Below, one piece after another: positions 19,497 to 63,847 of a stretch of 64,000 bases of DNA; positions within the stretch are counted from its first letter, which is position 1; each line of letters starts with the position of its first letter. Under the pieces are notes generated by a model. The model ran no database searches, had not been told where the DNA came from, and saw only the letters and a list, made by a program, of their open reading frames with translations. Both the position numbers and the translations under genes were made by a program. This DNA comes from a virus. The stretch covers positions 29,818-93,817 of IMG/VR virus record IMGVR_UViG_3300006077_000002; one strand, written 5' to 3'.

Positions 19497-20192
19497 CTAT
19501 TTAGTATCTTCTGATTGTCCTTCATAGTACTTAGCAACCTCAGACATCTTCTGGGAAGCTACTATGAAAAATACAGTTTGATTACGAATACCTCCATCTT
19601 CTGGAAGTAATGATTGGTTCCTAAAAATATATGCCTCCATTGCTCTGTTACTCATCAGAGTATCAACTAACCCTATTGGGCATACAGTTGATACTCCATC
19701 AATAGTATCATAACGAATGTCAGGACTATATCCCTCTTTATTAAGGAATGGACAGTTCCTTAATCTATCTAATTTTCTGGATTGACAGGTCTCACAGTTC
19801 CAACTTTTATCTGAAAACCTTGGGTTGTGTTGAGTGTATAACGACGTACTAAGTGTAGCTATTGACTCTGGTGTATACATTGATATTTTAAATATAAACT
19901 CAAGTAGTTCCCCAACCATCTCTGCAGGAAGTACTGATATAATATCTTTAGGTTTAACGGGTAAACCTTTAGCATCTATAATATTCCTATAGTCAACTAT
20001 ACAATATTCAAAAAGAGTTCTCTCAATAGAATTAGAGTGTACTCCAGAAAGCTTACTGATTTCATCGGATAGGTGGTATGTAGAAAGAAAGTGGTAGGGG
20101 AATGTACGAATTAAGAACTCAGCTGGAGATGTGTCTCCTCGCTGAGCCTCTGGAGTATACCAGAGTTCGGTATGAAAGATTGCAGGTAGCAT
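19497..20192 (-). CDS. Tail assembly chaperone (second), with Cys cluster
   Basis: Immediately upstream of tape measure; CETC...RNCPF...CP and LLPEDGGIRNQT motif. Confidence 0.6.
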   Translation of the reverse strand: MLPAIFHTELWYTPEAQRGDTSPAEFLIRTFPYHFLSTYHLSDEISKLSGVHSNSIERTLFEYCIVDYRNIIDAKGLPVKPKDIISVLPAEMVGELLEFIFKISMYTPESIATLSTSLYTQHNPRFSDKSWNCETCQSRKLDRLRNCPFLNKEGYSPDIRYDTIDGVSTVCPIGLVDTLMSNRAMEAYIFRNQSLLPEDGGIRNQTVFFIVASQKMSEVAKYYEGQSEDTK

Positions 20193-20197
20193 TGGAG

Positions 20198-20608
20198 CTA
20201 CTCTTCAACGTCTGCAAAAAACAATTGGAATGTAGATGGGTCTCTACTAATTGCTGAGATTGCGTTTGAGATTTCAGTAATCATGTCTGAAGGAATAATT
20301 CCAACTGACTCTGCTGCTGCTTCTCCGCTGATATCTTTTACCAGCACATGCTCTTTGCCATCATCATCATTAATGTTTTCCCAAGAGACGAGAGTCTTTT
20401 GAACAACTTTGAATGAGTATGAACCTGACGCAAGGAACATTGTATCTTCACCTTTTTTAACTACTACTTCATCTTCAAGTAACAATAGGTCACGAGAATC
20501 AAGAGGTTTAAGATATACTGTGAATGGGTTTTCTTGGCCCTTCTGAGAAGAAGGGATAAACTTATGTCCACCTTGTGGAGCTGAATTAACTACTAATGCC
20601 ATGAGCAT
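20198..20608 (-). CDS. Tail assembly chaperone
   Basis: Between tail tube and tape measure; LVSWENI motif. Start may be the ATG at 20602. Confidence 0.65.
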   Translation of the reverse strand: MLMALVVNSAPQGGHKFIPSSQKGQENPFTVYLKPLDSRDLLLLEDEVVVKKGEDTMFLASGSYSFKVVQKTLVSWENINDDDGKEHVLVKDISGEAAAESVGIIPSDMITEISNAISAISRDPSTFQLFFADVEE

Positions 20609-20644
20609 TCCTTTTATTGTAATACTATATTTTTGTATAGCTTA

Positions 20645-20670
20645 AGTGGTAGGCCCGAAGGCTTACCTAT
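20645..20670 (-). terminator. cUUCGg hairpin after tail tube gene (terminator or stabiliser)
   Basis: Minus strand GGTAAGCC-TTCG-GGCCTACC; no clear U-tract. Confidence 0.45.
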
Positions 20671-20673
20671 AAG

Positions 20674-21828
20674 TTATACTGTTGGGAAGTAAACTGTAAT
20701 TGTACGCTCGTTACCAACACAGTCAGGTGACTCAGCTTCAAAAGAAACCTCGTCGTATAAGATACCTGCATCATCAGTACGAGTTACTGTTACAAATTTC
20801 ATTTGTGGAATATAAACACCACAAAGGATAGGAGCACCAGCATTACCGTCACGAAGTTCTAAACTGAACTCTCCACGGACAGAGTTAAGAAGAGCATCAA
20901 AATTTGTTGTACCAACGTACTCAGTTTTGAATGTTCCACTTACAACTTTTTCTGTACCAACTTTGTTAGTGATACCATCAGTTGTAATACTAAGGATATC
21001 AGTGTTAGTTGTAGCAACATCTACTGCCAAGTCTTGAGCCGTATAAGGAACTCCAAGAATTGTAACAACAGCATTCTTACCAATTACTGGAGTAAGAATA
21101 TCACAGTCAAGGTTAATTGCTGGTGCTGGAGTAGTTGTTCCAGAACCTGCACCTGCAACTGAGAAGTCAGCAGTAGCAATACCACCAACTGGGAAAGCCA
21201 GTGCAGCAGTCTCAATCATACAACCACGATAGTCATAATCAATGTTATCGCCAGCAGTAGGCTTTAGGTGCTCACGGATAAGAAGTGATTTTACTTCAGT
21301 ATCTGGGCGAGGCAAGATGAATGAAAGAACACCACTTGCTGATTCTCCACCTGTAGGAACTGCAGAAAGTGCTGGAGTTACAACCAAGTCGTTAGTAGAA
21401 ACTGAAACAACTTGTACATACTCTTTAGCACCACCAACAGTTACCTCAAGCATCTGACCACCAACGATACCAGTAGCATCAGTTAGTGTAAAGTTACTAC
21501 CATCAACAGCACTTGCGATAGTTGTTGCAGTTGTGCTTGGAAGCTCAACACCAATACCATTTTTGTATAGGAGTTCAGCGTTAAGTACACCACCTACTAG
21601 ACCTGAAATCTCAGTAGTAATATTTCCTGAGCTAGTTTCTTGTCCAGCAATAGATGCTAGTTTAACGAGTGAGTTACGAATAACTGAGCGTTCAATTTGT
21701 TCGATATCAATCGAAATATCTCCAGCTGTGTAATCAAAATAGTCTGCGTCTGTAATGACGGTTGCTGGGTCTGCGTATGTTGCCTCTTCTTGAGCGGCGA
21801 GGCTTCGGCCTTTAGTTAAGAAAGCTAT
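20674..21828 (-). CDS. Major tail (tube) protein, probably 384 aa from an ATA start
   Basis: Frame is open 125 codons upstream of the ATG at 21453; AAAGGA RBS 6 nt before ATA-GCT-TTC-TTA; tail-tube-like content (GCMIETAALAFPVGGIATADFSV). Confidence 0.8.
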   Translation of the reverse strand: MAFLTKGRSLAAQEEATYADPATVITDADYFDYTAGDISIDIEQIERSVIRNSLVKLASIAGQETSSGNITTEISGLVGGVLNAELLYKNGIGVELPSTTATTIASAVDGSNFTLTDATGIVGGQMLEVTVGGAKEYVQVVSVSTNDLVVTPALSAVPTGGESASGVLSFILPRPDTEVKSLLIREHLKPTAGDNIDYDYRGCMIETAALAFPVGGIATADFSVAGAGSGTTTPAPAINLDCDILTPVIGKNAVVTILGVPYTAQDLAVDVATTNTDILSITTDGITNKVGTEKVVSGTFKTEYVGTTNFDALLNSVRGEFSLELRDGNAGAPILCGVYIPQMKFVTVTRTDDAGILYDEVSFEAESPDCVGNERTITVYFPTV

Positions 21829-21874
21829 GATAAGTCCTTTAAGTTTATATTGGGGATGGGTAGGCCCTAAGGCA

Positions 21875-22300
21875 TCAGGTACATGGGTCCATTTTTACAC
21901 GGACTTCAAGTACGATTGTGGCTCCACGTACGGGTGCCATCTCAGCATGGTCATAGTTAACAGATACAATATCTCTATCAACTATATATTTCCAAATTTT
22001 GTTGTCATTTAAGATAGATGACTCAAGAGAGTCTACAATATCCATAAGAACTAAATTATCTTCACCAACATTGGCAGCAACATAGACACTAAATAACATA
22101 GTTCTTAGGTATCCAGCCCTGCCAGCAGAGTTTGAGTCAAGTGTAAATACAACTGTCTCAAGGGTAACATCTACTGCAAGGTCTTCAGTAAGTTCTGAAA
22201 GTGGAGTAATATCATTCACAGTTACTTTAGGTTGTTGTGAGCTTGCCGAAATTAATTGGGAAAGCTCTTCAATAATTTGTCTAGTAAGTTGTGTACTCAT
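21875..22300 (-). CDS. Tail terminator-like protein
   Basis: Size, acidic beta-rich composition, position upstream of tail tube. Confidence 0.55.
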   Translation of the reverse strand: MSTQLTRQIIEELSQLISASSQQPKVTVNDITPLSELTEDLAVDVTLETVVFTLDSNSAGRAGYLRTMLFSVYVAANVGEDNLVLMDIVDSLESSILNDNKIWKYIVDRDIVSVNYDHAEMAPVRGATIVLEVRVKMDPCT

Positions 22301-46055: not shown

Positions 46056-46736
46056 ATGGCAAAATCAATTAAAGTACTAACGTATAACAAAGCAGGATTC
46101 GACAAAGCAGTTAAGCACGCTCTCTCTCTTGGTGTAAAGAAAACTACTCTAACCTTTGATGCTAACAAATCAAGCCTTGTGGTAAAACTTGGAGCTACTC
46201 CAACTATGGCTAAGAGCCGTGCAGGTTACACTCCTAAAGAGAACCCGTATGCAGCAATTCTTGACCTTGCTGGTTTCCAGTCTTGTCAGCACCTTGATGA
46301 CTTGGCAGCAAACAAACCAGCAGTTAAAACTGTTGGTGTTCCAGAAGCAGTTTGTGCTCAGCGTGCAGATATAGCATTCGACCAAGGATTTGTAATCGGC
46401 TATGACGAAGGTGTAGATGATACACTTCCACAAAGCACTTTGAAGTGTGTTGAAGCTGAGGTACTTACTCAGAACCCAATCGTATGGGCAACAATGGGTA
46501 TTCCATTCTTCAAAGATAATGGGCTTGATATCGTTGAGAACGATGGTAAGATGTACACCATCAACACTACAACTAACACAGCGACAGAGTTCACTGCGGT
46601 AGAAGCTGCCAAGCAAGCTAAGAAAGACCTACTTGCTGGTGAAGATTCAATCTATACTAGCTTTGCTAAAAACTTTGAGCTTGTTGACATGCTTCGTCAT
46701 GCAAAAGTCCTTGTTGACGCTGATAGCGAAGACTAA
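46056..46736 (+). CDS. Hypothetical protein, paralog of downstream gene
   Basis: AAAGGA RBS; biased codon usage; shares a repeat domain with 46847-47488. Confidence 0.75.
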   Translation: MAKSIKVLTYNKAGFDKAVKHALSLGVKKTTLTFDANKSSLVVKLGATPTMAKSRAGYTPKENPYAAILDLAGFQSCQHLDDLAANKPAVKTVGVPEAVCAQRADIAFDQGFVIGYDEGVDDTLPQSTLKCVEAEVLTQNPIVWATMGIPFFKDNGLDIVENDGKMYTINTTTNTATEFTAVEAAKQAKKDLLAGEDSIYTSFAKNFELVDMLRHAKVLVDADSED

Positions 46737-46846
46737 GAGTTACGGAGGGATGCCCTCCACAAATACCAATGGCCCTACATCATCAGCATCAGTCAACCTA
46801 AACCAATTAATTACAATAATTAATTACAACATATAAGGAAATTATT

Positions 46847-47488
46847 ATGGCAAACTCAATCCACTCTTTCGCAAAAGCACTAAATCTTACAGTAAAATCA
46901 GCAGACGTACAAGACATGAACCCAGTTATCTTTGCAACTCAGTTCGTTCCAAGTCTTCGTGGTTCAGATATCGTTAAAGATGGTGATACTGTTTACCGTA
47001 TCAACACAAAAGCAAACACTTCAACTGAAGTATCTGCATCAACACTTACAACTGAAGCAAAAGATGGTCTTGTAAAAGGTCGTGGTAACGATGCTTCTGT
47101 AAATGCTGCAATCAGCTTTGGTTTGGTTAAGAAGCTTGTCCTTAAAAAGAACAAAGCAGAACCAACTACAGGATGTAAAACTTCAGTAAAAGATATGGCT
47201 GACCTTCTTAGTCTAGTTGTAACTGATATCAAAGTTGCAGTTCAGAACGAAATCATCTTCCAAACTCAAGGCATCAAGCAAATTGCTGGTCTTGATATTC
47301 ACGATGGTCAGTACTTCAAGCTTGATACAGTTAGCAACACAGCTACACTTATCAATGCTGAAGCAATCGCAGAAAATGCTAAGGCTGATTTCCTTAAGGG
47401 GAAAGTAACAGACCTTACAAAGTTCTGTGAAAACTATTCACTTATCTCAAGTCTTACACTTGAAGTTAAGCCTACTGCAGCAGCGTAG
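46847..47488 (+). CDS. Hypothetical protein with an internally duplicated domain
   Basis: Two ~100-aa repeats. Confidence 0.75.
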   Translation: MANSIHSFAKALNLTVKSADVQDMNPVIFATQFVPSLRGSDIVKDGDTVYRINTKANTSTEVSASTLTTEAKDGLVKGRGNDASVNAAISFGLVKKLVLKKNKAEPTTGCKTSVKDMADLLSLVVTDIKVAVQNEIIFQTQGIKQIAGLDIHDGQYFKLDTVSNTATLINAEAIAENAKADFLKGKVTDLTKFCENYSLISSLTLEVKPTAAA

Positions 47489-47577
47489 TAGTATGGATGG
47501 GGAGCTATTCTCCCCTCCAATCTGATATTAGTTGAGCTGTCTAAGGACAGTTCATAAATAACATATAAAGGAATAAC

Positions 47578-49137
47578 ATGGCAAAAGCAACCCCAATTGA
47601 GAATGTCTCTGAAATTACAGATGACTATATAGAGCGAGTTCTTAAAGGGCATTACTCAGGTAATCTCACCAAGCAACTTACTCCGCTAATGATTAAAACT
47701 TTGGCGTTTGACTACAAACAAAAAGCTCGTAACCTTGACTGGTTATTTAAGGGTAAGACTACAATTACAATTACCCCAGACCCTGAAGTAATTCTTAAGA
47801 ATGCTATGAAAGAAGACTCTTATGGTATTAGAACTCTTTCATCATTCTTGGATAGTATAGGTGCAACTTTCTCTGGAGAAACTCTCCAAGATGGTAAGTG
47901 TAACTACAAAAATCAATCAATGCGTATTAGCCGTGTGATTAGTAACACTGGTAGTACCGATTTAGTTAAAGCTGTATTGGCTAAAGATTCTTATTCAGGA
48001 AACATTATTATCCGAAATATTGGAAGAAATGACCTGTACACATACAATCCAGAAACTGATACAGTAAGTACTGGTGACATACGCCGTTCAAAGAAGTCAA
48101 CTGACCTAACAGATGGTGAGCACTTTTGGTATAGAAATTCTGCAGGTTATTATGAGTGTGCAACAGTAGAACAAGCAGAGATGAAAGTAAAGAGAGCTAT
48201 TGATGATATACACTTACAAGAATGTCTAAGCCAATTAGATGCTGGTACAGTAATTATGTCAATTGAAATCAATGACTTTATCACTGCTTCAAGTGGTGGA
48301 GTTAGTTCATGCTTTGGTTTTGGTGGAATGCATCATATGGGCTGGATTAACTATTTCCGTGCTGACTTCGGGATTATGGTTTATATGCAGAACAGAGAAG
48401 ACCGCTTCTCTAAAGTTGGTCGCCAATGGTTATTGATGAAGATGACAGAGAATGGTGAAGACTTTGAAGCACCTGCTTATAAGTTCCAAAAACCTTATGG
48501 TCGTATTCAAAAATCCCACACCAATTTAGTTAATGCCTATGTTTTGGCAGCAATTAAAGATAAGTGGGGGTACAAAGAAAAAGACTTTGAAAAGATTACA
48601 AGTGGTAACATAAGCCATTGTAGTGTATCTGATACTTGTCTCCAACGAGATGGCTCACACAGTCGTCATTCAGGATATACAGATACAGGATTCGGAGACT
48701 CTGCGTATGGTATGCAACTAAAAGAGGGTACGGCATACAAAGGTCAGTATATGGCATTCCCATATGTATCACAACATTCCTCTCGTCAGCAGAATGGTCG
48801 CTCACTTATCTTTAACTTCCCAGATGCTTTAGATATGTCAGGACAACCAACAAACTCTGGTAACTTTGAGTCACATCAAAATTCACGTACAGATTCTCCT
48901 ACTGGATATATTCCACCATACAAAGTGGTTACTTGTTCGGTAAGTGGAGAGAGTGTGCTGAATGCTGAATGTACTATGATGCCTGATGGAACATACGTAA
49001 AGACCTCTTTACTTATCCGTGCATTTAATCCAGACTTAGTGCCTGAAGATGAGCCAGCTACTCCTGAAGTAGTTGAAGTTGCTGAAGAAGCACCAATCAC
49101 CGAAGAAGAATTAGACTTTGACGAAGACGAATTCTAA
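47578..49137 (+). CDS. Uncharacterised protein with DFITAS..SSC..G..H motif
   Basis: 519 aa; first gene of the peptidase-GluRS block. Confidence 0.75.
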   Translation: MAKATPIENVSEITDDYIERVLKGHYSGNLTKQLTPLMIKTLAFDYKQKARNLDWLFKGKTTITITPDPEVILKNAMKEDSYGIRTLSSFLDSIGATFSGETLQDGKCNYKNQSMRISRVISNTGSTDLVKAVLAKDSYSGNIIIRNIGRNDLYTYNPETDTVSTGDIRRSKKSTDLTDGEHFWYRNSAGYYECATVEQAEMKVKRAIDDIHLQECLSQLDAGTVIMSIEINDFITASSGGVSSCFGFGGMHHMGWINYFRADFGIMVYMQNREDRFSKVGRQWLLMKMTENGEDFEAPAYKFQKPYGRIQKSHTNLVNAYVLAAIKDKWGYKEKDFEKITSGNISHCSVSDTCLQRDGSHSRHSGYTDTGFGDSAYGMQLKEGTAYKGQYMAFPYVSQHSSRQQNGRSLIFNFPDALDMSGQPTNSGNFESHQNSRTDSPTGYIPPYKVVTCSVSGESVLNAECTMMPDGTYVKTSLLIRAFNPDLVPEDEPATPEVVEVAEEAPITEEELDFDEDEF

Positions 49138-49169
49138 ACAACAACCCTAACATATTAAAAAGGAACATC

Positions 49170-50933
49170 ATGTCAACAGTAAAAAACAAAATTAAGAATG
49201 TAGACTTAACAGTTTACACACCATTGGACAAGCCATTAGCAGAAACAACAGTAGTAGTATTTGGTCATGGAATTATCAAAGACCATTCTATTGGTACAAT
49301 CTCCCGTGTAGGACTTACAGATACCGCTTTGGTTTATGTAAAAGTAGGACATGTTACTTACTCAGTCCCTAAAGATATGCTATACACTCGTAAGCCTGTG
49401 GCAGGAGATGTTTCAAAAGCTATCTCTACTTTAAAAGTTCCTGCCAATTTACGTCGTGCCGCATATTTCACAAAGAACACAAAGATGTTTATCTATGGGC
49501 ATAAAGACTACAAAGATGGAACACCATGTGTAGTTGATGCTTATATGCAACCAACAAGTAAGTTTATTGCAGTTATGGTAAACAAAAAGGTGCAGTATAT
49601 TGAGCCAGCAAATCTATACATCATAGACCCTCAGTATGTTACTCCAATTCCATTGTTCTCTGAACTGAAAGAGCCCACAGATTTGCAAGAGTATATGGCA
49701 AAACTCCTTTATGCAGATAACATGGATGATTCAATCACTCTTGCGTTAGAAGATGTAGACCTTAGCAAGTATGATATGATTTCAAGTCAGTCAGGTTCTA
49801 AATGGGCAGCGATTATTCCTAAAGGTGCCAAAGGTCCTATGCCAGTACTTATGGCTCACTGTGATATTCAAATGAATGTCAAGCACCCAACAGAAAAGAA
49901 CCTTACATATGATGAGAAGCTTAGTAAGTTTAACTCTCCAACTGGTCTTGGTGCTGATGACCGTGCAGGATTGTTCGTTATCAATCGTGCTCTAAATATG
50001 CACGAAGGGAAGTTTATTGCTATCTTCTTTGATGAAGAAGAGGTTGGCTGTAAAGGCTCTCGTAACTTTGTTAAGAGTAAGGACTTTAAAGAGAAGATTG
50101 ACCCTATGGCTAGTCTTTATATCTCTATTGACCGTACTCGTTCAACTACTGGTGGTAAGACTGTAGCAACTTATGGGCATGATAACAAAGCAATTCTTGG
50201 TATGTTTAAAGATAAGCTTAAACGTCCTGAAGTTCGTGGTTCAAGCACTGACTGTAAAGTTCTAAGTGCAGAGTCTGTTGAAATTTCAAAAGATAATATG
50301 GGTATTGCTTGTGTTAACTTCTCTTGTGGTTATCAGTTTGAGCATACATCTCGTGAAACATTATACTGGAAAGAGCTTCTTGAGTGTGCTATTGATATCT
50401 GTGCTATGCCAGAGAAAATGCCTACACTTTGGAAGTTACAGTATCGTGCAGAAAAGCCAGCTGTGTCTTATGGTGGATATTATGGTCGTGGAGCCAATAC
50501 AACTACCAAAGCTAAGACAAAACCTAAAGCGAAAGTTACATCAACATTGTACGCTGATGACTATATCTTAGTTAATGGTGACTACTATGACAGTGATGAT
50601 GTAGAAGCACTACTCAAGCAGTTTAAGCATAAGATGGGTAGAGAATATGTTGTAGGTGATGCTGGGCCCTATACTCCGAAACGCAACGACTTCGTACGTC
50701 TATCCACCAGTGTTTCAATCGGAGGAATTTATGGTGGACAAAGACTTGATAAGGCTACTTACATTATGCTCGATTCCAATGTTTGGATTGTTCACAGCGT
50801 GGACCATACAACTGCTTCAGTAAGTCTTAGAACTGATGATGCATCTTATGACGCTGTGAATATCCCTATGGAGCTTCTTGAAGCAGTAACACAGAGCGAT
50901 ATGCTCGTATCACAAAATTTATTGGAGAACTAA
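49170..50933 (+). CDS. M20/M28-family zinc peptidase with accessory domains
   Basis: AHCD, LGADDRAG, DEEEVGCKGS, SIDR, GSSTD, GYQFEHT metal-binding motifs. Confidence 0.85.
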   Translation: MSTVKNKIKNVDLTVYTPLDKPLAETTVVVFGHGIIKDHSIGTISRVGLTDTALVYVKVGHVTYSVPKDMLYTRKPVAGDVSKAISTLKVPANLRRAAYFTKNTKMFIYGHKDYKDGTPCVVDAYMQPTSKFIAVMVNKKVQYIEPANLYIIDPQYVTPIPLFSELKEPTDLQEYMAKLLYADNMDDSITLALEDVDLSKYDMISSQSGSKWAAIIPKGAKGPMPVLMAHCDIQMNVKHPTEKNLTYDEKLSKFNSPTGLGADDRAGLFVINRALNMHEGKFIAIFFDEEEVGCKGSRNFVKSKDFKEKIDPMASLYISIDRTRSTTGGKTVATYGHDNKAILGMFKDKLKRPEVRGSSTDCKVLSAESVEISKDNMGIACVNFSCGYQFEHTSRETLYWKELLECAIDICAMPEKMPTLWKLQYRAEKPAVSYGGYYGRGANTTTKAKTKPKAKVTSTLYADDYILVNGDYYDSDDVEALLKQFKHKMGREYVVGDAGPYTPKRNDFVRLSTSVSIGGIYGGQRLDKATYIMLDSNVWIVHSVDHTTASVSLRTDDASYDAVNIPMELLEAVTQSDMLVSQNLLEN

Positions 50934-50934
50934 C

Positions 50935-51777
50935 ATGTTGAAATTTAAAGAAGGGCAACTAGCCCAGCTCTTAGAAGCAATTACAGACTCAGGTGTGAAG
51001 CTTAACACTTCACCTAAAGTAACTCAAGCAATCATTAACTTGGCGATGCAATCAAAGAAACTATCAAGCGTTATAAAGCTTAAGAGTACTACAAATGGCA
51101 TCGTCCTTACTACAGCAAAGAACTTTGATTCTAAAAATCCAGTTATCTTTAGTGATGAGACAATGGTTGAGTTCAGTCATGAAATTACTCCTGATATCTA
51201 TCACAAGAAGAACGATAACAAGGCAGAGTTTAGATACTTTGTCCCGCTTCGTCAAGTTCTGCGTGTTCGTTCACAAACAACTTCTAAGTTCTTTGTTGAA
51301 GATGATGATGGAAACACTTTCTTCGTCCCAGTGGATTTTAAAAGCATTAGTGCTAAGCAGTCTGTAATTCCTATCTTCTTTCCAAATCTAATTGAGAACA
51401 GAGAGAAAGCTCAGCAAATTATTCTTGCTTCTAATGCTCGTCGTTCAATGACAGGTATTCAGGTTGGAGATACAGTAACAGTTCGCTCTTATGCAGATAT
51501 GGTTGCAGAGTTTGGAGATACAGAAGTATCTTTCGGATATGATGGAGAGACTATGCGTATCACTGGAGAAATTCGTGGTGCTGATACAATTGTATTCCCT
51601 AACTATGCTTCACACTTAGCAGGTAGAACATACCGTATTGCAAAGATTTTGGAAGAGCGTGATGAGATTATCTTAACTGATAACATCACAGACCTAATCA
51701 ACCCAGAGACTTCTGAAGAGTTACCAAACATTGACCCTATCAGATTCAGTAAACTACACTTTACAAAAGCAGCTTAA
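50935..51777 (+). CDS. Hypothetical protein with C-terminal SH3-like domain
   Basis: IQVGDTVTVRSYADM...LAGRTYRI. Confidence 0.65.
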   Translation: MLKFKEGQLAQLLEAITDSGVKLNTSPKVTQAIINLAMQSKKLSSVIKLKSTTNGIVLTTAKNFDSKNPVIFSDETMVEFSHEITPDIYHKKNDNKAEFRYFVPLRQVLRVRSQTTSKFFVEDDDGNTFFVPVDFKSISAKQSVIPIFFPNLIENREKAQQIILASNARRSMTGIQVGDTVTVRSYADMVAEFGDTEVSFGYDGETMRITGEIRGADTIVFPNYASHLAGRTYRIAKILEERDEIILTDNITDLINPETSEELPNIDPIRFSKLHFTKAA

Positions 51778-51786
51778 GGAGAGCAC

Positions 51787-53016
51787 ATGAAAAAATTCAC
51801 AGGACGATTTAGTCCATCACCAACTGGTAAGCTTCATTTAGGAAGCCTTCGTACTGCACTTATCTCTCATATTATCAGTGATACTTTCGTCCTGAGAATT
51901 GAAGATACAGATGCAAAGCGTTCAACTGTGGAGTCAGAGCAAGAAATCATTGAGTCATTCAAGTGGCTTGGTATTAAAAATGATGGGGAAATTGTTAGAC
52001 AATCTGACCAAGAGAAAGGTGGAGTATATTCTGACTTAGCAAATAAACTTGTTGAGGCTGGATATGCCTACCGTTGTAACTGTACTGTAGATTATCTGCG
52101 AGCTATGAAAACTCAGCAGATTAAAAATAAGGAGCGTCGCCTTGGGTATAATGGAAAATGCCGTGAGTCAGGAAATACTGAGGGAGTCATTAGACTTAAT
52201 GCACGGAAAATCGGAGAAGAAAGAGGTGATATCTTCTTTCGCTTTGAAGATGATGTTTTTGGTACTCGTCGTGTTGATTTTAGAGATGTTCCTGATACAG
52301 TTCTTACTAGAGCAAATGGTACAGCAACATATATACTCGCCAATACATTCGATGATATGTTGGCAGGAGTGGACTATGTAGCTCGTGGTGCTGACATCAT
52401 TACTCAAACAGCAACACAAATTGCACTTCGTGAGGCTATTCACTTGGCAACAGGAATCCCTAACCCTGAAGTTCACTATTCACACTTACCGTTAATTCTT
52501 GGTGCAGAGAATCAAAAGCTTAGTAAGCGTAATGAAGATACAAAGTCTATCTTAGACTATCGTGCTGAAGGATTTACTCGTGAAGCAATCATTCAGTTTG
52601 TATTAAGCTTAGGTAACAAATCAATCTCTACAAGTCATGCAATGACAGTGGAGGAGATTAAACAAGCCTATAATCGTACATCATTGAGACGTAACGACAC
52701 AGCATTTCTTGAGCATAAACTCAAACACTTAAATGCAATGCATCTTAAGCGAATGGATACCTCAAAACTTGTGGCAGAAGTTGAAGAAGTCTATGGTGTA
52801 GCCCTTAGTACAAAATTAGTTGGAGCATTTAAGTACCGTGTAAGTACTATGCTTGAACTAAAAGAGAAATGTGAGCAGTTTGAGGGATTAGTTGCAGCAA
52901 AGCCAGAGGCATTGTCTGCACTTGAAGCTTCAGGATTTTCAGTAGATGGATGTAAAGCATTCAGAACAGATGCGTTGGGAGGAATGAGAACACCTCCACT
53001 TAAGGAATTATTATGA
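51787..53016 (+). CDS. Glutamyl-tRNA synthetase-like enzyme (GltX/GluQ-RS family)
   Basis: RFSPSPTGKLHLGS (HIGH), FVLRIEDTD, AYRCNC Zn site, RGAD, HLPLI, KLSKR (KMSKS); short C-terminus. Confidence 0.9.
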   Translation: MKKFTGRFSPSPTGKLHLGSLRTALISHIISDTFVLRIEDTDAKRSTVESEQEIIESFKWLGIKNDGEIVRQSDQEKGGVYSDLANKLVEAGYAYRCNCTVDYLRAMKTQQIKNKERRLGYNGKCRESGNTEGVIRLNARKIGEERGDIFFRFEDDVFGTRRVDFRDVPDTVLTRANGTATYILANTFDDMLAGVDYVARGADIITQTATQIALREAIHLATGIPNPEVHYSHLPLILGAENQKLSKRNEDTKSILDYRAEGFTREAIIQFVLSLGNKSISTSHAMTVEEIKQAYNRTSLRRNDTAFLEHKLKHLNAMHLKRMDTSKLVAEVEEVYGVALSTKLVGAFKYRVSTMLELKEKCEQFEGLVAAKPEALSALEASGFSVDGCKAFRTDALGGMRTPPLKELL

Positions 53017-53504
53017 GCACACCAACAAGCCTAGTGTATAAAAGTCGCCGTCTTCCAGTAAGACTATTGGAAGAGGATTGGGAGGCTACCACCACCTCAA
53101 AAGTTAAGCAGGAGATGTTGAGACAGAAAATCTTTAAAGCTCCTGAAACAGGTACATTATTGGTAAGTGGTACCGCAGGACCTATCATTAACCAGTTGTA
53201 TCAAATGGGTCGCAAATGTGCTGGACTATCTTTGATTGAGTATTTTGAGTCAAAGTTACAGAGCGAAGGAGAAAAACCTCCTGTCAGCGAAGTAATCTTT
53301 TTGTATGGTGTTGGTAATGAGCCTGCAAAAAGTGGTGAGTATGGCGGAAAGTTAATATCAGGACTTATGGAGTACTGTAAAAACAGAGGATACTTATTAG
53401 TTATTGAAACTCATTTATCTCCTACCAATTTTGAAGTTCGTTATGGTATCAACATAACAACTAAAATCTCTATTAAGTTAAAGGCTGAAGATGCATGGCT
53501 CTAA
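53013..53504 (+). CDS. Degenerate IstB/DnaC-like helicase-loader fold
   Basis: VIFLYGVGNE...LMEYCKNRGYLLVIETHL resembles the LILDDLGxE...IINYR..PTIITTNL pattern without intact Walker motifs. Confidence 0.4.
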   Translation: MSTPTSLVYKSRRLPVRLLEEDWEATTTSKVKQEMLRQKIFKAPETGTLLVSGTAGPIINQLYQMGRKCAGLSLIEYFESKLQSEGEKPPVSEVIFLYGVGNEPAKSGEYGGKLISGLMEYCKNRGYLLVIETHLSPTNFEVRYGINITTKISIKLKAEDAWL

Positions 53505-53751: not shown

Positions 53752-54059
53752 AACCACTATACACTCTAACTATCTTAAGAGGATGGAGAGAGGCTGAAGA
53801 GTACTATAAAAAGTACCCAGAAGAGAAGACCTTTGAGGCTTATACCTTTATAATTAACCAAAGGCTTTATAATTTAGGGGCATTTAGATGTGCTGACCGT
53901 ATAAAGTATGGTACACAAAGAATGTACAACAGTGTCATCAAATCTTATAAAGAAGGGTTACGCAGTAATTCTGAGATACTTATTGGAGGCAAGAGAGTTG
54001 CTCTTATTGTAGATAAGAGTAGAAGTACTAAAAATATTCTAAGGAAATTATATGAATAA
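53748..54059 (+). CDS. Small protein, LxxLY tag
   Basis: Ends ILRKLYE. Confidence 0.6.
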   Translation: MKPLYTLTILRGWREAEEYYKKYPEEKTFEAYTFIINQRLYNLGAFRCADRIKYGTQRMYNSVIKSYKEGLRSNSEILIGGKRVALIVDKSRSTKNILRKLYE

Positions 54060-61610: not shown

Positions 61611-61926
61611 TGACAAGGAAGTTTATAAACTCCTCAAAAAGGATATACAAATTAGACTGAATAACAAAGAGGAGGTAAAAGAATTCTTAAAAGCTATGTA
61701 TGAAATTGTAGCAGAAAACGGTGGTACTACCTTTGGCTCTGCCGATGGAAATAGTTATGGACGTAAGTTTATAGAGGATATAAGTGACAGAGAGTATCCA
61801 ACTTACATCTATAGAACAGACAGAGCACTATTTCAGACAGCAAGAGGAAACGACCACAACTTTACACTGCCAGAAATTAAAAGTAAATTTGCAGTAGCAA
61901 AACCATTGGGAGGTTTATATGATTAA
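61597..61926 (+). CDS. Small protein, LxxLY tag
   Basis: Ends PLGGLYD. Confidence 0.65.
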   Translation: MQRINDKEVYKLLKKDIQIRLNNKEEVKEFLKAMYEIVAENGGTTFGSADGNSYGRKFIEDISDREYPTYIYRTDRALFQTARGNDHNFTLPEIKSKFAVAKPLGGLYD

Positions 61927-62515
61927 CGTAGAATTACTACACCACACACCACTAAATGTTGCAGACTTTGCAATTTCTAAATGTTGGGACAAGCCATGTG
62001 ATATGGATAACCCTAATGTAGAGAAAATCAATAGAGTTGCTAACAAGTTTAAACATGCTTCAACAATTGAACACGTAACATACAATTTCAATGTAGATGG
62101 AATATCAAGAGCATGTCTTCAAGAACTTGCACGCCATCGAATGGCAAACTTATCTGTTAAGTCAACAAGATATACCTTAAAAGAACTAAGAGATTTTCCA
62201 ATTACTGGAAATTACATGGACTTTTTGGTATCAACAGATAATCCACTAGTAGATGCAGCTAATGAAGCTCAGCTAAGAGCTCTTCAGAACATTCTTAAAG
62301 ATGGATTGAGTAATGATGTTGCAAAGTATATGTTACCAGAAGCCTACAAGACATCTTTAGTATGGACTATCAATGCTCGTTCTCTTCAGAACTTCATATC
62401 TTTAAGGACTGACAAGAGTGCCTTATGGGAAATTCAAAACCTAGCCCATGCAATCTTCGATGCCTTGCCAGAAGACCACAAGTTTCTGTTTGAAGGGATG
62501 GTGAAAGATGGCTGA
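61919..62515 (+). CDS. thyX: FAD-dependent thymidylate synthase
   Basis: HASTIEH, ISRACLQELARHR..LSVKSTRY, TINARSLQNF..LR, ALWEI. Confidence 0.95.
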   Translation: MINVELLHHTPLNVADFAISKCWDKPCDMDNPNVEKINRVANKFKHASTIEHVTYNFNVDGISRACLQELARHRMANLSVKSTRYTLKELRDFPITGNYMDFLVSTDNPLVDAANEAQLRALQNILKDGLSNDVAKYMLPEAYKTSLVWTINARSLQNFISLRTDKSALWEIQNLAHAIFDALPEDHKFLFEGMVKDG

Positions 62516-62726
62516 TACAGAGATGACATATAGTGAGCATATGAATGCAGTTGCTAAACGCTCTTTCTATATGGAGGAAGTTAATTCAGTTACTGCAGAG
62601 GCAACAAGAGTTATTGTTGATAGGCTGACAAAGTTTGGAGTAGTCACCGTTGGTGATGAATACTTTGATGCTATATTTAAAATTATGGAGAAGCAATGCC
62701 CAAATGATTATAGGAATCACTTATGA
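62508..62726 (+). CDS. Hypothetical protein
   Basis: Operon context. Confidence 0.55.
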   Translation: MADTEMTYSEHMNAVAKRSFYMEEVNSVTAEATRVIVDRLTKFGVVTVGDEYFDAIFKIMEKQCPNDYRNHL

Positions 62727-63847
62727 GAAAATTAGTAACAGTTAGAACAATCTCAAAGCTAATACCAATTAATGGTGCAGACCGTATTGAGGTAGCAGAG
62801 ATTGACGGATGGCAGTGTATTGTAAAGAAGGGTGAATTTGCGGTAGGAGATAAAGGCCTCTACTTTGAGATTGATTCTTTCTTGCCAGGAGATGACGCAC
62901 GCTACAGTTTTTTAGGAAGTACTAAGCAGAAATCTTATGATGGAAAGAAAGGTTGGAGAATACGTACTATGAGAATGCGTGGAACAATTAGTCAAGGGTT
63001 ATTACTTCCTTTGGAAATGTTTCCAGAGCTTGACCTCACAGCTGATAACTTAGCGGAAGCATTAAGAGTTGTAAAGTATGATGTAGCTGATGTTATCCAA
63101 AGACCTGCAGGAAAACAAGGAAAGGCTGTAGGTAAAAAATTCCCATCATTCATTCCTAAGACAGACCAAACACGTATCCAGAATGTTATGTATTACTTCA
63201 ATTCTCTGAAAGATGAAGAGTTTGAAGAGACACTTAAGCTTGATGGTTCAAGTTGTACAATCTTTAGAACAGAGCGTCCACCAACACGATGGGAAAAGGT
63301 TAAAGCATTCTTTGGAATATCCTCTGACCTAACCCATAATGGAGTATGTAGTCGTAATCTTGAGCTTAAACCTTATGACAATTTCATCATTACATTTATG
63401 AATAATGGAATTAAGAGTCAGTATTCACAAGCTGACTTCTGGAAAGTTGCAGAGAAGTACGAAGTATTCAAGAAGCTACCTGTTGGGTTTGCTATTCAAG
63501 GAGAACTTATAGGTCCAAAGATTCAGGGCAATCATGAGAAAGTAGATGAACTTAAATTCTACGTGTTTGATATCTTTGATATTGGGCAATGTCATTATCT
63601 ATTACCTGGTGAGAGAGCTTCGTTTATGGCAGAACATCTTAAAGGTGTTCCACATACTCCAGTACTTCAAAGAGATGTTAAGATATTTCAACAAGTAAAA
63701 GATATTGAAGCATTCCAACAAAGAGTTAATGGTAAGAGTATGAACAAAGATGTTGTGAGCGAGGGACGTGTTTACAAGTCTTGTAGTCAACGAGGTCTTA
63801 GCTTCAAGGTAATCAACAACGAGTTCTTACTTAGGTATGAATCATGA
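62723..63847 (+). CDS. ATP-dependent RNA ligase (DRB0094/Rnl2-like)
   Basis: RKLVTVRTI..I.GADRIE, FPSFIPKTDQTRIQN, KLDGSS, IQGELIGP, EGRVYK, SFKVINN. Confidence 0.9.
   Translation: MRKLVTVRTISKLIPINGADRIEVAEIDGWQCIVKKGEFAVGDKGLYFEIDSFLPGDDARYSFLGSTKQKSYDGKKGWRIRTMRMRGTISQGLLLPLEMFPELDLTADNLAEALRVVKYDVADVIQRPAGKQGKAVGKKFPSFIPKTDQTRIQNVMYYFNSLKDEEFEETLKLDGSSCTIFRTERPPTRWEKVKAFFGISSDLTHNGVCSRNLELKPYDNFIITFMNNGIKSQYSQADFWKVAEKYEVFKKLPVGFAIQGELIGPKIQGNHEKVDELKFYVFDIFDIGQCHYLLPGERASFMAEHLKGVPHTPVLQRDVKIFQQVKDIEAFQQRVNGKSMNKDVVSEGRVYKSCSQRGLSFKVINNEFLLRYES

Follow-up and report, generated by a model that had tools for sequence, protein, structure and literature searches.

We report that a phage genome in the IMG/VR collection encodes a compact glutamyl-tRNA synthetase (GluRS) that differs from GltX, the standard bacterial enzyme. 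The gene lies in a window of 64,000 nucleotides (nt) from virus record IMGVR_UViG_3300006077_000002 (bases 29818-93817 of a 93,817-bp phage genome with a 99-bp terminal repeat), and its product of 409 amino acids (aa) is, judged from its sequence, a member of a distinct, phage-only clade and not a standard GltX. We infer that it is probably a tRNA-dependent GluRS that acts on the tRNA-Glu of the host. Upstream on the same strand lie genes for an uncharacterized 519-aa protein with an SSC motif, here called the SSC protein, and for a zinc peptidase of the MH clan. An earlier note on this DNA took these genes for an operon in which a GluRS paralog supplies activated glutamate for modification of some target and the peptidase reverses the reaction. 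A link between the GluRS and the neighboring module is plausible but unproven.

The compact GluRS stands apart from other synthetases. A search of 5.8 billion proteins returned 20 homologs of 407 to 425 aa at 41 to 71% identity, beyond which the score dropped from 308 to 191 bits and ordinary bacterial GluRS began. In a maximum-likelihood tree (quick search), the compact sequences were monophyletic (Shimodaira-Hasegawa-like approximate likelihood ratio test, SH-aLRT, 100), grouped weakly with the GluRS of Campylobacterota and Lawsonia, and were separated from the GluQRS clade (SH-aLRT 100). A scan of 185,579 species genomes turned up no cellular or prophage-borne member of the clade and matched only one ordinary actinobacterial GluRS. 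Scanning IMG/VR with the clade alignment found one true relative, contig L002, in which the gene is cut at the contig end, and scanning it with the single 409-aa sequence as the query found none. A metagenome scan added two members, on contigs L014 and L008, all other matches being bacterial GluRS or GluQRS. Finally, megablast of the gene block against 50,697 phage records gave no match, and a scan with a further alignment recovered no more than a marginal fragment.

The catalytic apparatus of a bacterial GluRS is conserved in the clade. PF00749 matched the 409-aa protein end to end (model positions 4-313 of 314; E 4e-53), in line with its description as a class I glutamate-activating enzyme. 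The HIGH and KMSKS motifs are present as HLGS and KLSKR, and residues H17, G19, K244, S246, K247, and R248 are invariant across 21 homologs, as are residues of the predicted glutamate pocket (R7, S11, E39, Y182, N186, and R200). All four residues of a zinc motif, C97-x-C99-x21-Y121-x3-C125, are likewise invariant in the clade; CxCx20-21Yx3C is the canonical zinc motif of bacterial GluRS (group I) and positions the acceptor arm (PMC4381286). Overall, about 70 columns are invariant over the 21 homologs despite identities of 41 to 71%, and they include every catalytic motif. Among solved structures, the clade profile was closest to Helicobacter pylori GluRS1 (6b1p; E 6e-81) and Escherichia coli GluRS (8i9i; E 2e-76), with GluQRS (1nzj) far weaker. 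Thus, the catalytic domain, HIGH, KMSKS, the zinc motif, and the stem-contact fold are shared with discriminating GltX (TIGR00464; 6b1p and 8i9i; Thermus thermophilus 1j09/1n78).

The phage enzyme differs from GltX, which is about 465 aa in length, chiefly in its anticodon-binding domain. Profile-profile alignment to bacterial GluRS spans positions 1-447 of 465 and is broken by a single internal deletion of about 45 residues, which falls in that domain. PF19269, the anticodon-binding domain family, matched neither the 409-aa protein nor the 20 other clade members, whereas the full-length bacterial GluRS listed have it. What is kept in the shortened domain, according to hhalign, is the first helix ("eRxxTL") and the last ("R..L.G..tPPL"), and R351, located in the eRxxTL helix, and R393 are invariant. 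By position count in the profile-to-PDB alignments, R351 appears to correspond to Arg358 of T. thermophilus GluRS, which reads anticodon base C36 and tells tRNA-Glu from tRNA-Gln (PMC2978374). Such a streamlined enzyme would bind host tRNA-Glu through the acceptor-arm zinc domain and the shrunken anticodon domain with its C36-reading arginine, and it would make Glu-tRNA-Glu.

The tRNA must be that of the host because the phage has none of its own. ARAGORN found no tRNA gene in the window, as had been claimed, and none in the whole 93,817-bp genome, and an Rfam scan gave no match at gathering thresholds. Mimics of tRNA-Glu were also sought with Rfam at E<=5 over 29-64 kb of the window, and nothing matched. 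Phage synthetases have been described mostly from huge phages, which exceed 200 kb and have numerous tRNAs that the synthetases are proposed to charge (Al-Shayeb et al. 2020, PMC7162821). The enzyme described here is also akin to bacterial GluRS, but it belongs to a distinct compact clade, and its gene is that of a T5-like siphovirus of 94 kb that lacks tRNAs.

Why such a phage would charge a host tRNA may lie in the state of the infected cell. Glu-tRNA-Glu would be supplied during infection when host GluRS is limiting or has been shut down; kinase toxins of the HipA type, whose target is GltX, could be one cause. HipA phosphorylates the ATP-binding motif of GltX and thereby inactivates it, and toxin-antitoxin modules have been implicated in phage defense (PMC10627512; bioRxiv 10.1101/2021.04.14.439929). 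That the GluRS acts on its own in this way, either to keep translation going or to offset HipA and other toxins directed at GltX, is a serious possibility that we place slightly short of probable. The GluRS gene is translationally coupled by an ATGA overlap to a collinear string of replication genes, which we count in favor of this reading. The genome also encodes an Rnl1-type RNA ligase, and the two genes together suggest an investment by the phage in tRNA upkeep.

Several observations weigh against an ordinary GluRS with a stand-alone role, and some of them bear out the earlier description of the protein as a GluRS paralog. The clade sits on a long stem branch (2.0 changes per site), and the 409-aa protein scored 268.3 bits against the GltX model TIGR00464 (model positions 5-369 of 470), below the equivalog cutoff of 289.95. 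It also falls below the NCBIfam cutoffs for GluQRS, scoring 187 bits against models that require 256 to 277 (277 for TIGR03838). GluQRS activates glutamate without tRNA. In the five GluQRS sequences compared, one active-site strand reads RGADL; the strand in the compact clade is RG[A/C/S]D[I/L]..QT..Q (RGADI in the 409-aa protein), and GluRS instead has RG[D/E]DH..NTP[K/R]Q or R[A/G]xEW. Every known GluRS needs tRNA for glutamate activation (PMC4393105). The GluQRS-like strand may mean that the chemistry of the clade has changed, and the deleted part of the anticodon domain may be one that is needed for positions 34/35. Glutamate makes up 6.4% of the residues of the phage proteome, an ordinary share, so there is no sign of a special demand for it. 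The serine of the KLSKR motif is retained in the phage enzyme, which also counts on this side. Finally, repeated nearness of GluRS genes to the SSC/peptidase module, described below, hints at a coupled rather than a stand-alone role.

Could the enzyme instead be a modifier of the GluQRS kind? Such a protein would activate glutamate independently of tRNA and esterify it onto a modified nucleoside, in the anticodon loop of a host tRNA or in another RNA or nucleotide. GluQRS (YadB; 1nzj), the glutamyl-queuosine synthetase of tRNA-Asp, is itself a shortened GluRS paralog with a Cys/Cys/Tyr/Cys zinc site, and it shares with the compact clade the RGAD[I/L] strand, in which the acidic residue and the His or Trp of GluRS are lost. 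The shortened anticodon domain and the 187-bit match to the GluQRS models point the same way. That score, however, is far under the cutoffs, and the tree places the clade elsewhere. GluQRS is about 300 aa long and has no anticodon domain, and no K[LMIF]SKR was found in the short GluQRS-type sequences checked, whereas the phage clade has both KMSKS and anticodon helices with conserved arginines, along with a zinc domain of GluRS length and a stem-contact fold. Moreover, no queuosine or 7-deazaguanine family was among the genes scanned, though no search was aimed at such families. We consider a GluQRS-like modifier improbable. Less probable still is that the gene was acquired by chance and has no adaptive role, or that its product is a noncatalytic binder of tRNA-Glu that serves as a decoy or protector. 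Ordinary glutamate usage and the lack of phage tRNAs would suit such readings, as would the Rnl1-like RNA ligase, which suggests that damage to tRNAs and its repair are of importance for the phage. The roughly 70 invariant columns, with all of the catalytic motifs among them, argue instead for purifying selection on catalysis.

The SSC protein belongs to a family without a described function, and its earlier label of "uncharacterized" stands. The 519-aa sequence matched nothing in Pfam, acetyltransferase families included, or in PHROG or NCBIfam. An exhaustive profile search gathered 69 cluster representatives at E<=1e-3, of which 22 reached E<1e-30, and residues D233, S244, C245, R282, Y307, and D369 are invariant in all 69. 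Distant members have a common core (about residues 200-340) and carry several C-terminal CxxC zinc ribbons. Structure prediction, which the earlier note had proposed, gave a confident AlphaFold (AF2) model when 69 sequences were supplied (predicted local distance difference test, pLDDT, 87.3; predicted template modeling score, pTM, 0.83), compared with a pLDDT of 67 from 11 sequences. The model predicts an N-terminal helical part, a beta-barrel insert (about residues 127-207) that resembles SH3, KOW, or Sm folds, an alpha/beta core (about residues 223-410), and a region resembling a vestigial zinc ribbon (residues 443-489). When the model was compared with solved structures by VIA-align, about 33 of the top 50 rows were GNAT enzymes (including 3tcv, MccE 3r95, and RimL 1s7f), aligned over residues 54-410. 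The matches were weak, however, with Z scores of 3.3 to 4.5 against a noise guide of 7 to 8 for the tool and root mean square deviations of 4 to 5 A, and Foldseek against the PDB gave nothing at E<=1e-3 (E>=0.3). We conclude that the core is predicted to be weakly GNAT-like, and we do not claim membership. The protein thus has a weak likeness of core fold and a nearby synthetase gene in common with the GNAT-fold aminoacyl-tRNA transferases (FemX/FemABX, Aat, Ate1, and the C-terminal domain of MprF) and with enzymes of the RimL/MccE type. It is set apart from them by an invariant Ser-Cys pair, by invariant Asp, Arg, and Tyr residues, by the inserted beta-barrel, and by a tail with a zinc ribbon; it has no sequence similarity to such transferases, and Fem, Aat, and Ate1 were not among the structure matches listed.

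Other identities for the SSC protein were considered and set aside. The protein PcfJ (PF14284) was suggested by the ESM Atlas (score 0.84), but neither this genome nor that of Enterococcus phage H1 has PF14284, and the PcfJ protein of Bacillus phage Chewbecca was not matched by the SSC-family profile. A primase or replicative helicase is disfavored, as genes for a DnaB-like helicase and a Toprim primase sit elsewhere in the genome. The sequence SGGVSS might recall a PP-loop, but the SGG varies within the family. We note that the protein ends in an acidic tail (window positions 48970-49137 encode the C terminus) with a final Phe (...FDEDEF) that is invariant in all close homologs. We take this tail to resemble those with which SSB, T7 gp2.5, and T7 gp4 bind polymerase, and it could be a docking peptide for protein-protein contacts. 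With regard to distribution, tblastn with the 519-aa protein and with a distant family member found no match in phage records. A six-frame search with the family alignment missed a member that hhalign confirmed, so its blank result is uninformative.

The 587-aa protein is a peptidase of phage type. It matched phage peptidase families (phrog_4191; E 7e-19) through a catalytic core at about residues 216-440, flanked by extra domains of about 215 aa at the N terminus and about 150 aa at the C terminus. Across 26 homologs, residues H230, D232, D263-D264, E290-E291, D361, and H392 do not vary, and the motifs HxD, GADD[K/R]AG (here GADDRAG), EE.G, and GY..EHT..E are conserved throughout; GADD.AG, EE.G, and GY..HT..E align to PepT 3gb0. 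The protein had been called a zinc peptidase of M28 type. The dizinc motifs uphold the first part, but the M28 family PF04389 scored 20.8 bits, just under its gathering score of 21.3, and the family profile found PepT 3gb0 (M20B) and TET1 2cf4 (M42) among solved structures, although some homologs have a precomputed PF04389 match. Thus, "M28-type" is approximate, and "MH-clan dizinc exopeptidase" is the safer label. The full set of dizinc motifs is shared with PepT, with the TET/PepA glutamyl aminopeptidases (M42), and with the M28 aminopeptidases. Unlike those enzymes, the phage family has additional N- and C-terminal domains, falls under every curated cutoff, and often sits beside SSC proteins. 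Of 50,697 phage records, 63 contain the catalytic domain; phages of Bacillus (Tsamsa-like), Lactococcus (P087-like), Enterococcus, Pectobacterium, Cellulophaga, and Brevibacillus are among them.

Within the lineage, the module and the GluRS gene are found together repeatedly, in line with the earlier expectation of co-occurrence in other phages. Contig L014 (4.7 kb), which begins downstream of the position of the 226-aa gene, carries open reading frames (ORFs) of 487, 571, and 294 aa and then a GluRS-like ORF, in the same order as in the block and at identities of 27% (SSC protein), 36% (peptidase), 34% over part of the length (280-aa protein), and 48% (GluRS). Moreover, identical base counts of listed contigs indicate at least seven contigs on which a GluRS-like gene accompanies peptidase or SSC homologs: all three on contigs of 7943, 48480, 25583, and 21381 bases, GluRS with the SSC protein on one of 9051 bases, and GluRS with the peptidase on two of 6051 and 42884 bases. 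Some long peptidase-bearing contigs (65, 54, 33, and 30 kb) have no listed GluRS-like partner, and converse cases exist too, but the searches were word limited and these cases are weak evidence. Downstream of the GluRS in L002, the genes for the 163-aa protein (44% identity), a helicase, a phrog_600 protein, Pol A, and a sigma-like protein are equally collinear with those of the window. As relatives share the gene order of the entire replication module, adjacency on its own is a weak argument for coupling, and synteny within the lineage may reflect inheritance and not function.

Beyond the lineage, the SSC family and the peptidase also occur side by side. At the extreme left end of the genome of Enterococcus phage H1 (OP534061.1; 138 kb), three SSC paralogs of 623, 399, and 335 aa are encoded, and a peptidase gene lies between the second and the third. 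All are annotated "hypothetical protein," no GluRS is nearby, and structure matches of corresponding lengths in BFVD agree with the SSC-family assignment. A 172.5-kb phage (IMGVR_UViG_3300037467_000733) has a tandem array that runs 442-aa protein, peptidase, 435-aa protein, peptidase. The 442- and 435-aa proteins are rich in CxxC and SSC-like (hhalign E 3e-4 for the former; E 5e-11 and probability 97% for the latter). The array is followed by genes for NAD salvage (NUDIX, nicotinate phosphoribosyltransferase [NAPRTase], and nicotinamide mononucleotide [NMN] adenylyltransferase) and, 7 kb downstream on the same strand, by a full-length GluRS that is not orthologous to the compact one. In the same phage, the inosine monophosphate dehydrogenase (IMPDH) gene has Intein_splicing and Hint matches inside its IMPDH domain and is probably interrupted by an intein. 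We conclude from these genomes that the SSC family and the MH-clan peptidase are a genuine pair, and the two would constitute a separate, older two-gene phage module. The peptidase family is present in two of five GluRS-bearing viral records, and the module appears to travel with GluRS genes above the rate expected by chance. None of the 63 peptidase-bearing phage records, however, is among the 30 GluRS matches listed, and in the huge phage LR756504 the 20 kb around the peptidase contain neither a GluRS nor an SSC protein.

Two other peptidase neighborhoods deserve comment. The proteins adjoining the peptidase in Pectobacterium phage PP16 (gp10) and Cellulophaga phage phi38:1 (gp037) could not be demonstrated to be SSC members (hhalign E 0.31 and 0.04, respectively). 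In PP16, a 44-kb autographivirus, the gene for a hypothetical protein of 580 aa runs into the start of the aminopeptidase gene; it has the position of an SSC gene, but its product has no detectable kinship to the family. In phi38:1, the peptidase has a tRNA-Glu(UUC) gene 3 kb upstream and an RtcB-type ligase 4 kb downstream. The tRNA is one of about 22 in that phage, and its position may be coincidence and carries little weight.

The recurrent pairing makes it necessary to ask whether the phage GluRS serves the module. FemX, L/F-transferase, and Ate1 are aminoacyl-tRNA transferases with GNAT-type folds. By analogy, the GluRS could make Glu-tRNA-Glu as the donor for the 519-aa protein acting as a GNAT-fold transferase of this sort, which is possible but, in our judgment, unlikely. 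We are just as doubtful of the remainder of the scheme, in which the SSC protein adds glutamate to a protein or envelope target and the MH-clan aminopeptidase removes or trims what was added. The conserved four-gene order in L014 at 27-48% identity, the seven or more contigs with joint homologs, and the independent 172.5-kb phage with an SSC/peptidase array 7 kb upstream of an unrelated GluRS all favor such a scheme, as does the occurrence of the peptidase in two of five GluRS-bearing viral records compared with 63 of 50,697 phage records. Moreover, most of the top structural neighbors of the confident SSC model are GNAT enzymes, and relatives of the peptidase include the M42 glutamyl aminopeptidases. 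The GNAT likeness is weak, however (Z<=4.5, and Foldseek blank at E<=1e-3), and every host makes Glu-tRNA-Glu, so a phage GluRS is not obviously needed as the source of a donor. H1 has three SSC paralogs and a peptidase but no GluRS nearby, long peptidase-bearing contigs lack a listed GluRS-like partner, and in the 172.5-kb phage the NAD-salvage genes intervene between module and GluRS. The two records with both GluRS and peptidase are, moreover, large genomes rich in auxiliary genes. Somewhat more doubtful still is a general version, in which unrelated phage lineages share a two-gene module of Ser-Cys GNAT-like protein and aminopeptidase that tags and untags a target of host or phage with Glu-tRNA-Glu, and some of them recruited a GluRS of their own.

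How does the original proposal fare in light of these data? The earlier note asked whether GluRS takes the place of ATP-grasp or amidoligase genes beside the peptidase; no GluRS is near the H1 pair. The block itself also has no ATP-grasp, GS-like (glutamine synthetase-like), or COOH-NH2 ligase by Pfam, PHROGs, or NCBIfam, unlike the amidoligase-peptidase tagging systems of the kind described by Iyer et al. The earlier note was prepared to abandon its proposal if the enzyme simply charged tRNA-Glu and the genes did not co-occur elsewhere. Co-occurrence was found, which speaks for the proposal, but the enzyme retains those parts of a true, tRNA-charging GluRS that engage the acceptor arm and read the anticodon, which speaks against it. 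The proposal thus has partial support, and our preferred reading is a GluRS that probably charges host tRNA-Glu beside a separate module.

The block itself is part of a larger gene array (Table 1). The six co-oriented ORFs previously described were all found, on the + strand, and the first two encode paralogs with a common repeat (BLASTP E 2e-12 and 2e-10 to the two copies), as had been proposed. The 280-aa protein had been called SH3-like; low-confidence structure neighbors in the ESM Atlas are the sole basis for this and concern a C-terminal part that may be SH3-like. In L014, the corresponding position is taken by a weak homolog (E 1e-8). Intergenic gaps shrink along the block (110, 89, 32, 1, and 9 nt) and give way to overlaps that run on to a superfamily 2 (SF2) helicase gene at 54052. 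No terminator-like site was found on the + strand within 42.5-56.5 kb, where promoter-like sites were fewer than in shuffled sequence. Because the overlaps continue and no such terminator was found, any limits of an operon are arbitrary, and the six-gene block is a slice of a longer co-directional array and not a delimited operon.

Table 1. Features of the gene block and of related loci (window positions unless another sequence is named)
Feature	Coordinates	Strand	Basis or remark
226-aa protein, one copy of a ~70-aa repeat	46056..46736	+	no Pfam/PHROG match
213-aa protein, two copies of the ~70-aa repeat	46847..47488	+	paralog of the 226-aa protein
519-aa SSC-motif protein	47578..49137	+	fold model and family profile
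587-aa multidomain MH-clan dizinc peptidase	49170..50933	+	phrog_4191, invariant metal ligands
280-aa protein	50935..51777	+	starts 1 nt past peptidase stop; no Pfam/PHROG match
409-aa compact bacterial-type GluRS	51787..53016	+	PF00749, motifs, tree
163-aa protein	53013..53504	+	start overlaps GluRS stop (ATGA at 53013-53016); ORF call, synteny
198-aa thymidylate-synthase-like protein	61919-62515		adjoins the RNA ligase
Rnl1-type RNA ligase	62723-63847		phrog_968, E 6e-92
Two metallophosphoesterase ORFs	whole record 19703-22277		outside the window; second is a weak match
SSC paralogs, phage H1	299-2170, 3437-4636, 5755-6762		widened family profile, E 1e-12 to 1e-14
Peptidase, phage H1	4657-5730		
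Tandem SSC-like/peptidase array, NAD-salvage genes, and GluRS, 172.5-kb phage	L101:12355-17963, L004:1-11344		
IMP dehydrogenase, 172.5-kb phage	L004:12612-14132		Intein_splicing and Hint matches
580-aa protein and aminopeptidase, phage PP16	L096:2966-5666		
tRNA-Glu(UUC), phage phi38:1	L097:1671-1743		
Peptidase, phage phi38:1	L097:4848-5918		

The rest of the genome is that of a T5-like siphovirus. The structural module (terminase, portal, protease, capsid, and a 1361-aa tape measure) occupies the - strand over the first 29 kb of the window, and early and replication genes follow on the + strand from 29.2 kb, among them those for the SF2 helicase, Pol A, a ThyA-like protein, and the Rnl1-like RNA ligase. 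The ligase gene lies at the genome end and is adjoined by a short thymidylate-synthase-like gene. The remainder of the genome encodes ribonucleotide reductase (RNR), PhoH, a DnaB-like helicase, primase, flap endonuclease (FEN), SbcCD, and a deoxynucleoside monophosphate (dNMP) kinase. About 1 kb downstream of the SbcC-like gene, a GIY-YIG homing endonuclease gene of the SegE type splits two metallophosphoesterase ORFs that are possibly halves of an SbcD-like gene.

A lineage of mid-sized phages without tRNAs thus keeps a miniaturized GluRS, on which purifying selection is clear. As a natural experiment, the enzyme bears on how far the anticodon domain of GluRS can be cut back, and it is a testable candidate counter to host toxins aimed at GltX or tRNA-Glu. 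What is also new is the SSC family, uncharacterized but with a confident fold model. At least three phage lineages pair it with a dizinc aminopeptidase, and two of these have a GluRS gene close by. If unrelated phages do tag and untag a target with Glu-tRNA-Glu through this pair, the result would be the first viral "writer/eraser" system of tRNA-dependent glutamyl transfer. Ultimately, if the link between the GluRS and the module is functional, a new kind of tRNA-dependent modification system would be at hand, and otherwise the SSC-peptidase pair would still be a defined target for study.

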